From Bdellovibrionales bacterium (GTDB lineage: Bacteria > Bdellovibrionota > Bdellovibrionia > Bdellovibrionales > UBA1609), in assembly GCA_965200875.1 (NCBI GenBank), contig OZ241456.1:1600001-1664000 (forward strand): a stretch of 64,000 bases of DNA, written 5' to 3'. The translations under genes and the position numbers were made by a program. The notes beneath the pieces are model-generated. The model was not told where the DNA came from, ran no database searches, and saw nothing but the letters and a program-made list of their open reading frames with translations. Shown here in pieces: positions 84-19,481 of the stretch; the first letter of the stretch is position 1, and every line of letters begins with the position of its first letter.

Positions 84-287
84 TTATAGCTTCTTATATC
101 TATATTTGTTTTTGATATTTGCACTAAAGTATTTGCCATGTGATTCTGCATTCATTAAGTTCGTATGTTCGTCTTTTGGCACATCAAAATATTGATAAAC
201 ACTTCCATCTTTAAACTCTATTTCTAAAACTTGTTCTTCATGTCCTATTGATTCCAAGTTTGAAGATTCCACTTGTTGTCTTTGCAT
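84..287 (-). CDS. KTSC domain protein
   Basis: MQRQQVESSNLESIGH...LEIEFKDGSVYQYFDVP...AESHGKYF is the typical KTSC pattern. RBS GAAGGAGG precedes the ATG at 287, so the start is shortened from the ORF track. Confidence 0.9.
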   Translation of the reverse strand: MQRQQVESSNLESIGHEEQVLEIEFKDGSVYQYFDVPKDEHTNLMNAESHGKYFSANIKNKYRYKKL

Positions 288-785
288 CTTTATACCTCCT
301 TCATTTGCGATAACCAATTATCTTTATTATTAATTTAAACATTATTTTTCTTTAATACTTTTAATAAATCCCTCTGTATCAAAATCAATTCATTTGAAAT
401 GGTAGACTGTTTTTAATTCATAATATTACCTCCTAAAGTTTTATTTACACTTTTTTTTTCACTTTGAACAAATAGCGTTATTCTCAGTAAAATTTTGTCG
501 TAAAAGATGTTTTTTCTGGATTTCCTGCTTTCATGTGAAGACAGGAGATTTTAAATTCCTCGTTTCAGTAAAAGTAAAGAGCAAACAAATAAAAGATATG
601 TATTTTTTATTTCTGAATTTTGAAAAACTCTTTCTTTGTATATTTTTTAAACTGTTACTGTTTCAGTTATTGTTTTTCCTTTTTCATGTAGAGTTTAAAC
701 AATTTCTAAAGAAGTTTCCAAGGAAAAAGCTGTTAACACATTTGAACATTTACAATAATGGCATCATAATTCTTCCCTTTGACTC

Positions 786-15144: not shown

Positions 15145-15360
15145 ATGAAGACCAAAAGAAAAATAACCACCACTGTTTATCTTACAGAAGAGCAAAACAC
15201 TTTGCTTAAAGAGCTTAGGCAACGATCCAAAGTGCCTGTTGCTGAGTATGTTCGGCAAGGAGTGGATTTGATACTGCATAAAAACGCCCACCTTATACCT
15301 GGTCAGCTTTCTTTTACTTTGGATAAAAAAAATGAAAAACCGGGTCGTGGACACAAATGA
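15145..15360 (+). CDS. Ribbon-helix-helix protein, Myxococcus CdbA-like
   Basis: RKITTTVYLTEEQ...KVPVAEYVRQGVDLIL...PGQ resembles the CdbA-type RHH as I recall it. Confidence 0.75.
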   Translation: MKTKRKITTTVYLTEEQNTLLKELRQRSKVPVAEYVRQGVDLILHKNAHLIPGQLSFTLDKKNEKPGRGHK

Positions 15361-17264
15361 CTCCGAAAAAAAATCACCAAGATCAGGACTCTCCGGCTCA
15401 AAGCCGAATACGCAATTTTTCCATAATTGCCCATATTGATCATGGTAAATCCACCTTGGCGGATTGTTTTTTGGAGTTCACCAAAGCTGTGGATGAAAGA
15501 CAAAAAAAAGAACAGTTTTTGGATCAAATGGAACTAGAAAGAGAACGGGGAATTACCATTAAAGCACAAACCGTGCGCCTTTCTTATAAAGCAAAAGATG
15601 GTTTAGTGTATCAGCTGAATTTAATAGATACTCCAGGTCATGTTGATTTTTCTTATGAAGTGTCCCGCTCTCTTTCCGCTTGTGAAGGGGTTTTGCTGGT
15701 GGTGGACGCATCACAAGGAGTGGAAGCGCAAACAATGGCTCATGCCTCTTTGGCTTTAACCAAAGACCTGATAATTATTCCCGTATTAAATAAAATTGAT
15801 CTTCCTGCTTCTCAACCGGATGAGGTTTCTCTTCAACTGGAAGAGCTTATAGGAATCAAAAAAGAAGAAATTATTTTTGTCAGTGCCAAGGAGAAAATCG
15901 GCATTCAAGATATATTGGAAAGAGTGGTTCGTGATATTCCTCCACCTTCTGCTCTTAACTTGAGTACTCCTGAAAATAAGAAATCATCCGGTAATCAAAT
16001 CATGGATCATTCCCCCTCCTCCCCGATAGCGGAAGGCTTTTTACGCGCTTTGATTTTTGATTCTTGGTTTGACAGCTATCAAGGGGTGGTGATTTTATGT
16101 CGTGTGGTTGAAGGGCGAATTAAAGTGGGGGATGAAGTGCGTTTTATACAGGGCCGAAAAGAAAGCACGGTATTGAAATTGGGAGTTTTTACCCCTTTTC
16201 CTTATAATTTGAAAGAGCTTAAAACCGGAGAAGTGGGTTTTGTGATTACAGGCATTAAAGGTATAAAGGATGTTATTGTGGGGGACACTTTAACCCATAC
16301 CGAAGCACCGGCTTTGTCTCCTCTGGCTGGTTTTAAAAAGCTTAAACCTCTGGTGTTTTCCAGTTTGTTTCCTTCTGATTCCAAGGATTTTGTTCAGCTG
16401 AAAACCGCTTTGGAAAAACTGGTTCTCAATGATTCCTCTTTGGTTTTTGAAACAGAAAACTCTCCTGCTCTGGGTTTTGGCTTTCGATGTGGTTTTTTGG
16501 GATTACTGCATCTGGAGATTATTCAAGAACGGTTGGAAAGAGAATTTAATCTGAATCTGATTATCACAGCCCCCTCTGTTATTTATAAAGTGTTTACAAA
16601 AGCAGGAGAAGTTCAGAAACTGGATAACCCCTCTGCTTTACTTGATCCTTCCAAGATTGAACATATTGAAGAACCTTTTGTTCGCGTTGATATTCATTCT
16701 CCTAGTGAATATGTAGGGGGTATTTTAAAACTTTGTGAAGAAAGAAGAGGAGAGCAGATTCGAATGGAATACAGCTCAGGAAACAGAATGATTATAGAGT
16801 ATCGTCTTCCCATGAGTGAGATCGTAATGGATTTTCATGATCGTTTAAAGTCTGTTTCGCGCGGTTATGCTTCGATGGAATATGAGTGGATGGGCTTTTC
16901 TCCCTCAGAGCTGGTGAAATTGGATATTTTATTAAATGGAGAAAAAGTAGACGCGCTATCTGTGATTTTGCATCGTTCAAAAGCACAAAAGAAAGGCCGT
17001 GCTCTGGTGAAGAAATTAAAGGAGCTTATTCATAGACAACAGTATCAGATAGCCATTCAAGCTGGCATAGGTTCCAAAATTATTGCGAGGGAAACTATCA
17101 GTGCTTTAAGAAAAGATGTGACAGCCAAGTGTTATGGAGGGGATATTACCAGAAAGAGAAAACTGTTGGAAAAACAAAAAAAAGGAAAAAAAAGGATGAA
17201 AGCCATTGGGAAAGTGGATGTGCCTCAATCTGCTTTTATGGCTGTATTAAAAGCAGATGATTAA
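15357..17264 (+). CDS. lepA: Elongation factor 4 (LepA)
   Basis: IRNFSIIAHIDHGKSTLAD, GFRCGFLGLLH, KDVTAKCYGGDITRKRKLL. Confidence 0.98.
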   Translation: MTPKKNHQDQDSPAQSRIRNFSIIAHIDHGKSTLADCFLEFTKAVDERQKKEQFLDQMELERERGITIKAQTVRLSYKAKDGLVYQLNLIDTPGHVDFSYEVSRSLSACEGVLLVVDASQGVEAQTMAHASLALTKDLIIIPVLNKIDLPASQPDEVSLQLEELIGIKKEEIIFVSAKEKIGIQDILERVVRDIPPPSALNLSTPENKKSSGNQIMDHSPSSPIAEGFLRALIFDSWFDSYQGVVILCRVVEGRIKVGDEVRFIQGRKESTVLKLGVFTPFPYNLKELKTGEVGFVITGIKGIKDVIVGDTLTHTEAPALSPLAGFKKLKPLVFSSLFPSDSKDFVQLKTALEKLVLNDSSLVFETENSPALGFGFRCGFLGLLHLEIIQERLEREFNLNLIITAPSVIYKVFTKAGEVQKLDNPSALLDPSKIEHIEEPFVRVDIHSPSEYVGGILKLCEERRGEQIRMEYSSGNRMIIEYRLPMSEIVMDFHDRLKSVSRGYASMEYEWMGFSPSELVKLDILLNGEKVDALSVILHRSKAQKKGRALVKKLKELIHRQQYQIAIQAGIGSKIIARETISALRKDVTAKCYGGDITRKRKLLEKQKKGKKRMKAIGKVDVPQSAFMAVLKADD

Positions 17265-18312
17265 AAAGTTCACCGGCTTTTTTGCCGGCATTTTTATTTT
17301 TATTTGGGTGATTTTGATTGCTCTTTTTTTAAGATGGAGCATGTTGGAAGTGTATGTTCTACCCTTTCATGGAATGATGCCCACTCTTTTTCCAAACGAT
17401 CATGTTATTGTGAATAAAATGGCTTATGGTTTGCGCTGGCCTTTTTCCTCTCGTTATGTTTCAAACTGGTCTGAACCAAAAAGAGGGGAAGTTATTGTCT
17501 TTCGATCTCCTTTTGATCCGGATTCGCTTTCCATACGCAGAGTGATTGGCATTCCAGGAGATCGCATATTTTTTGAAAATGGCAATTTGTACATAAATGA
17601 AAAAAAAGTTATTAAACGTCTGCCCTCTCTTCGAAAAAAAGATTTTTCCTGGGTCAGAGATGAGGATTTTTCGGATGGAGGCAAAACAGAAGATAAAAGC
17701 CATTATGTTCATTGGGAGGAGACTCTTTCCGATTCCTCTTACAGTATTTTACTGAAAAAGAGAGAAAAAAATTACTTGATTTTTGGCCCTTATCGCGTCC
17801 CACCCCGGTATTATTTTGTGATGGGAGATCACAGGGATCAGTCTCAGGATAGCAGGACCTGGCCAGCGCGCATTCAAAAAGCAAAAGGAATGGTGACTTT
17901 TTCCCGTTTATCTGCTGGAGATGAAACTATTTCCATTCCCAAGAGCACTTTGGTTCGAACAGGTGATTTGAAATTGCCGGAATATTTTGAAACTAAGCAG
18001 GATACTTTACTAAAAGGACCTTTTGTGGAGGTGAAAGTATCCGCGAAAAAAGCAGGTTTGGCGGGGAATGTGTCTGCTGGGCAGATAAATGTTATTGAAG
18101 GGAAATTATCCCATCATCTGAGTGTGAATAATGTAAAGGCTCTCAAAGGAGGCTTAGATGAGAATCTGGTGTTGGAATCGGATATTTTAGGTAAAGTCAT
18201 TCGGGTTTGGTTTAGCTGTGAAAAAACTTTAACAGGTGTTCCCTTTCTTTGTGATCCCCGATATATGAGATGGAATCGCACTTTTTTCCCCATTCACCAG
18301 AAAAATATTTAA
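17257..18312 (+). CDS. Signal peptidase I homologue lacking the catalytic Ser/Lys, with a baseplate-J-like insertion
   Basis: S26 boxes are present but degenerate: PFHGMMPTL, SIRRVIGIPGD, FVMGDHRDQSQDSR. About 95 aa are inserted after DSRTW. Confidence 0.85.
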   Translation: MIKKFTGFFAGIFIFIWVILIALFLRWSMLEVYVLPFHGMMPTLFPNDHVIVNKMAYGLRWPFSSRYVSNWSEPKRGEVIVFRSPFDPDSLSIRRVIGIPGDRIFFENGNLYINEKKVIKRLPSLRKKDFSWVRDEDFSDGGKTEDKSHYVHWEETLSDSSYSILLKKREKNYLIFGPYRVPPRYYFVMGDHRDQSQDSRTWPARIQKAKGMVTFSRLSAGDETISIPKSTLVRTGDLKLPEYFETKQDTLLKGPFVEVKVSAKKAGLAGNVSAGQINVIEGKLSHHLSVNNVKALKGGLDENLVLESDILGKVIRVWFSCEKTLTGVPFLCDPRYMRWNRTFFPIHQKNI

Positions 18313-18512
18313 TTCTTATTGGTTTAGTGGTGATGAAACATTTTTTAATTTGCTTGTTTCATGTCATCCTGATAAAGTAAGACATCAGTGTTTGTTCAAA
18401 AAAATACTTTAAACTGAGTCGGTTGGGAAGTAATTGTGGTTCTTTTTTCATCTGCTTTAGTATGGTGGCCAAGCTGTGGAGATTTACAAAATTCAAGCCG
18501 AAGGAGAATAAT

Positions 18513-19481
18513 ATGGAAAAAAAATCCCCCTCAAACAAAAAAACACTTTTAGGTATAGACGATTTATCCACTAAAGATCTTGAGTTCATTCTTCAGACAG
18601 CCGGGCTGTTTAAGAAAGAATTTTATAAAACTGGTCGCATTATTCATTGTATTGACTCTGAACAAACAAAGGGCATGGTGGTTCAGCTGTTGTTTGCTGA
18701 ACCCAGCACACGCACCCGCGCCAGTTTTGAAGTGGCTTGTGGAAAACTGGGAATAGCAGTGACTTCTTTATGGAATCTGCATTTTTCCAGTATGGCAAAA
18801 GGGGAAACCCTAGAGGATACTCTTCAGTGTCTTATTGCTTTAAAACCCAATATGATTGTGATTCGTTGTGGAGATTTTAAATCTGCGGAGAATTTTTTAC
18901 GCTCAAGTCCCATACCTGTTATTAATGCAGGACTGGGGGCTATGGAGCATCCTACTCAGGCTTTAGTGGATGCCTTTACCATTAAAGAGAAAAAAGGAAA
19001 AATAGAAAATGAAAAAGTGCTAATTGTTGGAGATGTTTTACACTCCCGTGTGGCCAATTCCAATTTAAAATTGCTTGCTCGTCTTGGAGCTAAGCTTGGA
19101 ATGTGTACTCCTGAATCATTAAGCCCCGCAGATAAACAAGCTTGGAAAGATGTGGTTCGTTTTGATTCATTGGAAACCGGTATTAAGTGGGCAGATGTCA
19201 TAATGTGTTTAAGGGTACAAAGGGAAAGACATTCTTTGCGCAACATTGGTTTCTCTATGGCTGAGTACAGGGACAATTATCGAATTGGGCAGGAGGAAAT
19301 GGATGTTTTCCATCCTGATGGTGTGCTTTTACACCCTGGTCCGGCAGTACGAGGTGTGGAAATTTCAAATCAGGCTTTAGATGATTCACGCTGTCATATT
19401 GTGACTCAAGTGGAAAACGGCTCACATGTTCGTTCAGCTATCATAACCCTCATGTTGAATTTGGAGATAAAATCATTATGA
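18513..19481 (+). CDS. pyrB: Aspartate carbamoyltransferase catalytic subunit
   Basis: FAEPSTRTRASF, HPTQALVD, VGDVLHSRVA, HPGP; RBS AAGGAG precedes the ATG at 18513. Confidence 0.96.
   Translation: MEKKSPSNKKTLLGIDDLSTKDLEFILQTAGLFKKEFYKTGRIIHCIDSEQTKGMVVQLLFAEPSTRTRASFEVACGKLGIAVTSLWNLHFSSMAKGETLEDTLQCLIALKPNMIVIRCGDFKSAENFLRSSPIPVINAGLGAMEHPTQALVDAFTIKEKKGKIENEKVLIVGDVLHSRVANSNLKLLARLGAKLGMCTPESLSPADKQAWKDVVRFDSLETGIKWADVIMCLRVQRERHSLRNIGFSMAEYRDNYRIGQEEMDVFHPDGVLLHPGPAVRGVEISNQALDDSRCHIVTQVENGSHVRSAIITLMLNLEIKSL

Follow-up and report, generated by a model that had tools for sequence, protein, structure and literature searches.

What becomes of a signal peptidase that lacks the residues with which it should cut, and that carries within its conserved core a domain otherwise known from phage baseplates? 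The question is raised by one gene, which we call lepB1*, on a stretch of 64,000 nucleotides from a Bdellovibrionales bacterium (contig OZ241456.1, positions 1,600,001 to 1,664,000; the window, whose numbering is used throughout). The gene sits where a lepB gene for signal peptidase I (SPase I) is expected, directly after lepA, and an initial annotation made from the letters alone had described it as a catalytically dead signal peptidase displaying a domesticated baseplate domain, the two traits being treated as one invention. We find that both traits are real, that they are separable, and that the protein is maintained by selection; what it does is argued below by analogy. The gene and its parts are as follows.

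17257..18312, plus strand: lepB1*, 351 amino acids plus stop, an apparently non-catalytic S26 signal-peptidase homologue with an inserted barrel (open reading frame, profiles and AlphaFold2 model)
17260..17337, plus strand: N-terminal hydrophobic helix, residues 2-27, presumed single membrane anchor (AlphaFold2 helix 2-27 and hydrophobic sequence)
17362..17388, plus strand: degenerate nucleophile box PFHGMMPTL, residues 36-44 (ungapped alignment to Escherichia coli SPase I)
17530..17562, plus strand: base box SIRRVIGIPGD, residues 92-102 (alignment to E. coli SPase I)
17824..17856, plus strand: conserved box GDHRDQSQDSR, residues 190-200 (G, D, R, S, D, S and R kept, Asn replaced by His192)
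17869..18162, plus strand: inserted beta-barrel domain, residues 205-302, 98 residues (Pfam PF04865, PDB sequence matches and structure superposition)
18163..18309, plus strand: C-terminal S26 strand (LVLESDILGKVIRVWFS) and tail with a pair of cysteines (invariant columns of alignment A1)

The core of LepB1* belongs to the S26 peptidases by every comparison made. In Pfam, Peptidase_S26 (PF10502) matches residues 14-211 at E 4.4e-35, TIGR02227 scores 123.4 bits against a cut-off of 47, and E. coli SPase I is found in a PDB sequence search at E ~1e-20. The AlphaFold2 model, computed from a 47-row alignment, has a mean predicted local distance difference test score (pLDDT) of 91.0 and a predicted template modelling score (pTM) of 0.83, and its residues 29-347 superpose on E. 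coli SPase I (1b12_D) with Z 21.0 and a root-mean-square deviation (rmsd) of 2.9 Å over 187 residues at 32% identity. With E. coli LepB (PDB 1b12, 1kn9, 9nlo) the protein shares the fold, the position after lepA, the N-terminal membrane helix and the boxes MxPTL, RxxGxPGD and GDxRDxSxDSR, but the segment between the base box and the GDxRDxSxDSR box is shorter and the 98-residue barrel follows the latter. As for SPase I in general, the helix at residues 2-27 is presumed to anchor the protein in the membrane, with the rest in the periplasm. Public records call the homologues just 'signal peptidase I'.

The departures from the enzyme lie at the catalytic dyad. The initial annotation had read a glycine for the nucleophile serine and an arginine for the base lysine, and the ungapped phmmer alignment to E. 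coli bears out both: in the window's box, LPFHGMMPTL, the two Ser of E. coli IPSGSMMPTL are matched by Phe37 and Gly39 (codon 17371-17373), in that order, and the Lys of YIKRAVGLPGD is matched by Arg94 (codon 17536-17538). We take these to be, in E. coli numbering, the positions of the nucleophile Ser90, of Ser88 of the oxyanion hole and of the general base Lys145, respectively. Substitution of Ser90 or Lys145 abolishes activity in E. coli. LepB1* has neither the nucleophile serine nor the base lysine, so that in enzymatic terms it is no signal peptidase; from the missing residues and the E. coli mutagenesis we infer that it no longer cuts, and no cleavage would be expected of it. His38 was considered as a substitute catalytic residue and ruled out, the position being H, Q, K, T, S, P and others among homologues.

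The same replacements recur among relatives. A word-indexed search listed 120 homologues, which were aligned together; 57 have both dyad positions replaced (dead forms hereafter) and 60 keep Ser and Lys (intact forms). The nucleophile position of the dead forms is G, E, D or A, and their base position is Arg in 86%, against Lys in all 60 intact forms. In the third box G190, D191, R193, D198, S199 and R200 are invariant in alignment A1, and the position of His192 (17830-17832) holds His in 91% of the dead forms and Asn in every one of the 60 intact forms; His192 may compensate for the Lys-to-Arg change or serve another role. One could go further and speculate that LepB1* is still a hydrolase with an unconventional site, for instance one made of His192, which is found in none of the 60 intact forms, and Ser196, which is retained in the GDHRDQS box. 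Archaeal and eukaryotic signal peptidases do carry a His in place of the Lys. We nevertheless hold such an activity to be very improbable: the Asn-to-His change is confined to one clade and is therefore a single event, the variable canonical nucleophile position is joined by the loss of the neighbouring oxyanion serine, and the His of the eukaryotic enzymes takes the place of the Lys, where Arg or Ser stands here.

The second peculiarity, the extra segment, had been put at some 95 residues with the pattern of a baseplate J protein, and this reading held up in profile and in structure. The insert comprises the 98 residues 205-302, lies between GDHRDQSQDSRTW and LVLESDILGKV, that is, in the hairpin that leads from the GDxRDxSxDSR box to the last conserved strand, and has no counterpart in E. 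coli SPase I. Baseplate_J (PF04865), the Pfam family that the annotation had expected here, scores 33.5 bits (cut-off 21.1; E 3.6e-8) over residues 207-302, and the match takes in only positions 21-112 of the 255 in the profile. A PDB sequence search finds the Baseplate J proteins 9g8s_C (E 8.2e-5) and 9euf_C (E 3.1e-4), and Foldseek, also anticipated by the annotation, matches baseplate chains to the AlphaFold model with probability 1.00. Residues 205-302 of the model superpose on the phiCD508 chain 9gb2_G with Z 15.5 and an rmsd of 1.5 Å over 93 residues at 31% identity; the other targets give Z 15.0 (cyanophage A-1(L)), 13.8 (a Streptomyces injection system), 13.8 (phi812), 12.6 (Mu), 10.3 (AFP) and 9.1 (T4, 5iv5_A), and more than 20 baseplate entries superpose at Z 15.5 to 9. 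In several of these chains the aligned range far exceeds 95 residues (102..317 in T4, 121..389 in AFP), the barrel there hosting further insertions. The match is far beyond chance, and the rigid, well-packed barrel of the insert and the first globular barrel of the wedge proteins of the Baseplate_J, gp6 and gp47 type are homologous.

With these wedge or 'triplex' proteins (phiCD508 gp65, 9gb2/9g8s; phi812, 9euf; Mu, 9ki1; T4 gp6, 5iv5; AFP, 6rao) the insert shares the barrel and the motif GNV..AG.I, but it has neither their N-terminal helical part nor their C-terminal half, and lepB1* stands among housekeeping genes outside any contractile-tail cluster, so that LepB1* is a relative by domain and not a baseplate protein. 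A profile search of the window genome gave no Baseplate_J match besides the insert (sheath and tube families were not searched). We have not equated the insert with the 'wing domain' of the phiCD508 triplex protein, for which the phiCD508 passages available to us give no residue ranges.

Is the barrel then a domesticated piece of phage, as had been proposed? A full HMMER pass with the insert alone as query, over 1.84 billion representatives, gave 136 matches at E up to 0.001, and the family of LepB1* itself is followed by three kinds of protein whose E-values are alike (1e-8 to 1e-5), namely true baseplate J proteins, membrane proteins of about 500 amino acids, and further S26 proteins that bear the insert. 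The true baseplate J proteins are about 350-380 amino acids long, with the barrel at about residues 80-180, and match the full profile (positions 2-254; P0133, P0135). The proteins of about 500 amino acids (P0128, P0134, P0129, P0153 and about 80 more) begin with a cytoplasmic N-terminal domain, cross the membrane with one predicted helix and carry the barrel beyond it, at about residues 211-310; the commonest phylum of their clusters is Chloroflexota, they are 37-46% identical to the insert, and their Baseplate_J match is partial and falls on the same part of the profile. Searches of these proteins gave no Pfam family beyond that partial match, NCBIfam gave no family for 9 of 11 barrel carriers and a sub-threshold TIGR02243 for the other 2, and a cluster look-up gave 'hypothetical protein' only. 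The same fold recurs in GlxA of Streptomyces lividans, at residues 148-256 (domain 2; PDB 5lxz, 4unm) with Z 12.2, for which Pfam holds a separate domain family, PF21110. The Chloroflexota proteins and GlxA share the barrel with LepB1* and are otherwise unrelated to it. Since the barrel thus occurs in cellular proteins as well, a domesticated phage domain is only one possible history: the part of the proposal that names a genuine Baseplate_J-type barrel stands, and the part that assumes a direction of transfer does not follow from the data. 'Baseplate-type barrel' is the safer label, and the baseplate-J barrel appears, from these sequence and fold matches, to be a portable extracytoplasmic module and not a phage part alone.

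The notion that the dead peptidase and the barrel arose as one invention fared worse. Sorted by dyad and insert, the 120 listed homologues divide as follows.

Both dyad positions replaced: 48 with insert, 9 without, 57 in total
Ser and Lys kept: 13 with insert, 47 without, 60 in total
Other: 3, of which two are truncated and one has His at the Ser position, keeps Lys and has the insert

Live and dead dyads thus occur in the family both with the barrel and without it, which makes all four combinations. Because the same insert is found in lepA-linked enzymes with an intact dyad, which occur in four genera, and because 9 of the 57 dead homologues are without it, the single-invention idea fails, and the dead dyad and the barrel insert are separable traits. 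The intact insert-bearing proteins (for example P0050, P0054 and those of loci L109 and L115) share with LepB1* the position after lepA, the insertion point and the barrel, are 43-47% identical to it overall, and keep IPSGSM, YIKR and GDNRDNS; they are presumably active.

The insert is present in 25 of 384 genomes of the order, spread over six genera of a single family: the window genome and 24 of the 108 others in that family. In an even sample of the phylum it is present in 3 of 401 genomes, which belong to that family as well. A survey downstream of lepA had been proposed, and in 25 of 25 loci, across the six genera, the C-terminus of LepA lies directly upstream of the insert-bearing gene. 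In the window's genus each of the 13 loci has G, E, D or A instead of the nucleophile Ser and R or S instead of the Lys, and the third box begins GDH in the 11 loci where the box pattern matched. A second genus with small genomes (1.3-1.5 Mb) has D or E in place of Ser at all 4 of its loci and retains Lys at 3 of them. Four genera with larger genomes keep Ser in 7 of 8 insert-bearing loci, the exception having Gly, and Lys in 8 of 8. Genome sizes are 1.9-4.1 Mb in these four intact genera (the 1.9-Mb assembly being 61% complete) against 1.3-2.3 Mb for the dead forms. A dead gene without the insert was found in 2 of the 14 other genomes of the window's genus, with a match over residues 1-205 and then 302-348 in one frame.

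The order of these events can be approached with a tree of 65 rows, of which 55 are from the 120 listed proteins (thinned by hand) and 10 were translated from loci, with the insert columns removed. It was computed in quick mode, with support from the Shimodaira-Hasegawa-like approximate likelihood ratio test (SH-aLRT) only, and rooted on seven lepB2 rows, lepB2 being the second signal peptidase gene described below; some frames were trimmed to the first Met, which left two lepB2 rows without their N-termini. The split between lepB1 and lepB2 has support 100. The dead forms of both small-genome genera make up one clade (SH-aLRT 99, 25 rows) on a long stem inside lepB1, and dead forms without the insert fall at at least three places within it. 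Among the intact forms, those that have the insert and those that lack it are intermingled on basal branches of poor resolution, on which one insertion followed by several losses looks the same as repeated gain. Our reading is that the barrel would have entered an active, lepA-linked enzyme first, that the common ancestor of both small-genome genera would then have lost the nucleophile, in a single event, with Lys following later, and that the barrel would have been dropped several times among the dead descendants. Two further losses of the nucleophile would have occurred among otherwise intact insert-bearing forms (P0059 and genome G331).

A gene that has lost its catalytic residues, in small genomes (1.3-2.3 Mb) and on a long stem branch, could be a functionless relic on its way out, tolerated thanks to lepB2. 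The pattern of substitution speaks otherwise. In pairwise Nei-Gojobori estimates on 12 coding sequences of the genus, the closest pair has a nonsynonymous rate (dN) of 0.045 and a synonymous rate (dS) of 0.506, hence a dN/dS of 0.09 (core 0.088, insert 0.094), and the 31 other pairs listed have dN/dS of 0.10-0.27 at dS of 0.99-2.5, which is near saturation and makes these pairs a rough guide only. Over 47 insert-bearing homologues, which are 38-88% identical to LepB1*, 29 columns are invariant. The dead clade has moreover acquired constraints of its own: W71, F86, G142, T144, T201, P203, F215, P241 and Y243 are at least 90% conserved in it and less than 60% in the intact forms, and four differences between dead and intact forms are nearly fixed (K to R94, N to H192, W to Y67 and R to N303). 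The range of dN/dS, 0.09-0.27, contradicts a relic, as do the new clade-specific residues, the intact frames in 13 of 13 genomes of the genus that carry the gene and the persistence of the dead gene across two genera; we give decay next to no credence. LepB1* is a maintained protein under purifying selection with new constraints, not a decaying gene.

The insert is thus conserved and selected in its own right, and one may ask whether it is the barrel that carries the function. LepB1* would then be a structural or anchoring factor of the envelope, its S26 core a membrane-tethered scaffold, and the partner of the barrel would be folded or not a peptide at all, for example a component of the cell wall, the outer membrane or the surface. 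The display of the same module behind a membrane helix in the Chloroflexota proteins, and its insertion in an extracytoplasmic enzyme, GlxA, fit this picture, the barrel behaving in both as a portable module. Yet barrel-less dead forms persist, both in the listed homologues and in the window's own genus, the S26 core is constrained at least as much as the barrel in the closest pair, and no ligand is known for the barrel in any context. We therefore regard this explanation as unlikely, while granting it a real share of the possibilities.

If LepB1* does not cut, another enzyme should. A second, active-type lepB had been suggested as something to look for, and the window genome (1.87 Mb in 2 contigs, 94.5% complete) has exactly two S26 matches, lepB1* and an intact lepB2, so that lepB1* is not its sole SPase I gene. 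LepB2 (G000:C1:536972-537601; L001:1459-2220) has 253 amino acids, the boxes IPSGSM, VKRVVG and GDNRDNSSDSR, and no insert; it presumably does the processing. In the window genome lepB2 is flanked by an open reading frame of 166 amino acids (beyond it a partial one of 265 amino acids, glmS-like by eye) and by a large one that is ftsH-like by eye. The tail cysteines of LepB1*, C321 (18217-18219) and C332 (18250-18252), are invariant in alignment A1, and the same pair is invariant in lepB2 (alignment A2); they probably form a disulfide, as far as conservation can tell.

In 8 of 12 loci of the genus (11 from other genomes and the window's own) the dead gene is followed directly by an intact lepB2, and it is feasible that LepB1* regulates LepB2, by pairing or competing with it as many pseudoenzymes do with a live enzyme, shielding cleavage sites or tuning which preproteins are processed and when. 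The adjacency would suit such a role, as would the membrane anchor and C-terminal cysteine pair common to both proteins, and competition for the same signal peptides would not even call for direct contact. In the window genome, on the other hand, the two genes are about 1.08 Mb apart, and E. coli SPase I is not known to need a partner, which leaves us doubtful of a regulator and inclined to rate it as a minor possibility. A complex prediction for LepB2 (residues 28-253) with LepB1* (residues 28-351) scored 0.00, the mark being 0.32; run without controls, it speaks neither way on binding.

A third tandem S26 paralogue, lepB3, occurs in related genera, at the following five loci.

L109:2622-3296
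L111:2763-3287
L115:2698-3300
L116:2698-3132
L119:2789-3286

In these five loci the nucleophile position of lepB3 is A, H or L, and the Lys or Arg of the CL[KR]RVV box is kept in 4 of 5; the S26 profile search of the window genome found no such third copy. Given the non-Ser nucleophile position, inactive signal-peptidase paralogues may be common in the order.

What, then, might a non-cutting signal peptidase do? The best functional analogy is SipA (also called LepA) of Streptococcus pyogenes, an inactive, signal-peptidase-like pilus assembly factor from a pilus and sortase operon (PDB 4n31, 4k8w), which, according to PMC4049620, has the S26 fold without the catalytic Ser and Lys, retains the cleft and coexists with real signal peptidases. 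SipA (4n31_A) superposes on the LepB1* model with Z 14.4, and the sequence matches are weak. The two differ in that SipA comes from a Gram-positive bacterium, is without an inserted barrel and has Asp and Gly as replacement residues. Factors of the SipA type are encoded beside pilin and sortase genes and are needed for pilus polymerisation; such genes are absent from the neighbourhood of lepB1*. Since the dead clade is nested in its family's lepB1 group beside intact enzymes, the loss in LepB1* is independent of that in SipA, and the two are not orthologues.

By this analogy we lean, with modest conviction, towards LepB1* being a non-cutting, membrane-anchored SPase I paralogue that acts as a peptide-binding accessory of export. 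Its cleft would bind an extended peptide, the cleavage region of a signal peptide or something similar, without cutting it; the protein would assist certain envelope or exported proteins as their holder, chaperone or adaptor, and the barrel would provide an added surface for protein contacts. The positions that we take to line the S1 and S3 pockets of E. coli SPase I correspond to Y33, L35, M40, L44, V81 and I93 in LepB1*. In the ungapped alignment all of these are hydrophobic, and for M40, L44 and Y33 conservation is at least 90% both among the dead and among the intact forms. It is because the hydrophobic residues of the cleft are kept in kind, while new clade-specific residues have been fixed, that LepB1* most likely still binds an extended peptide.

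Several points weigh against this proposal. No binding partner, bound peptide or phenotype is known, and the role is assigned by analogy. The pocket positions are carried over from E. coli numbering, and the loss of activity itself is concluded from missing residues and from mutagenesis of E. coli Ser90 and Lys145. The variety of residues at the Ser position would fit a mere loss of function equally well. The nine dead homologues without a barrel mean that the role of the dead core cannot depend on the barrel everywhere, and no pilus, sortase or other client genes adjoin lepB1* in the window.

A bolder version of the peptide-binding proposal would make LepB1* a signal-peptide receptor that binds and never cuts: it would grip the uncleaved signal peptides of chosen exported proteins and so keep these at the inner membrane, with the barrel selecting or docking the clients, and release would come by hand-over to LepB2. 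We think it improbable that matters go as far as this.

The immediate neighbour of lepB1* upstream is

15357..17264, plus strand: lepA (elongation factor 4), 635 amino acids (Pfam GTP_EFTU, LepA_C and EFG_C; junction sequence)

The lepA stop codon is 17262-17264 and the ATG of lepB1* lies inside the final lepA codons, an overlap of 8 nt that makes co-transcription of the two genes probable; the canonical lepB position claimed in the initial annotation is thereby confirmed. The gene is flanked by housekeeping genes: holA, metK, a 71-amino-acid ribbon-helix-helix (RHH) gene and lepA on one side, pyrB, carA and a ResB-like (resB) gene on the other. In two public Bdellovibrionales contigs (L016 and L017, one labelled Pseudobdellovibrionaceae) the order is metK-lepA-lepB-lepB-lepB-pyrB(-carA); their lepB genes are tandem and insert-less and were used for synteny only. 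The search for such loci used nucleotide patterns back-translated from alignment A1, which amount to generic S26 boxes, and 78 of the 80 loci kept are ordinary signal peptidases of other phyla.

The RHH gene, at 15145-15360 on the plus strand between metK and lepA, matches RHH_3 at E 1.6e-9, and its end overlaps the start of lepA; the metK-lepA gap of the two related contigs holds no open reading frame of at least 120 amino acids, shorter ones falling outside that listing. LepA itself has 635 amino acids in the window against 599 in the two related contigs, and has an N-terminal extension as well as an extra stretch between its GTPase domain (ending at about residue 195) and domain 2 (starting at about residue 243). 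As a habitat lead only, up to 0.51 of the sampled words of window positions 15357-19481 occur in contigs of runs labelled sponge metagenome (run X3), which come from a second study and are additional to the runs that are the probable source.

Text searches of the literature, with subscription journals outside their coverage, returned no paper on a fusion of signal peptidase and baseplate J, and no relevant paper on a Bdellovibrio lepB signal peptidase, as far as titles and the beginnings of abstracts tell; nor was a paper found that pairs PF04865 with PF10502.

Signal peptidase I, an essential protein and a target of antibiotics, is commonly regarded as an enzyme with a single purpose. In the lineage described here, the conserved, lepA-linked copy would have been turned into a non-enzyme throughout, with a second copy left to do the cutting, and the signal peptidase family is seen to be able to host a barrel otherwise known from contractile-tail baseplates. 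For annotation this means that a Baseplate_J match alone is no proof of a prophage or an injection system. The four natural combinations of dyad and barrel form a ready experimental series, both on the role of the barrel and on the purpose of a dead signal peptidase. And if the receptor version were true, these small-genome relatives of predatory bacteria would possess a device for the timing of secretion, or for retention, in which a dead enzyme is combined with a module that phage baseplates have as well.

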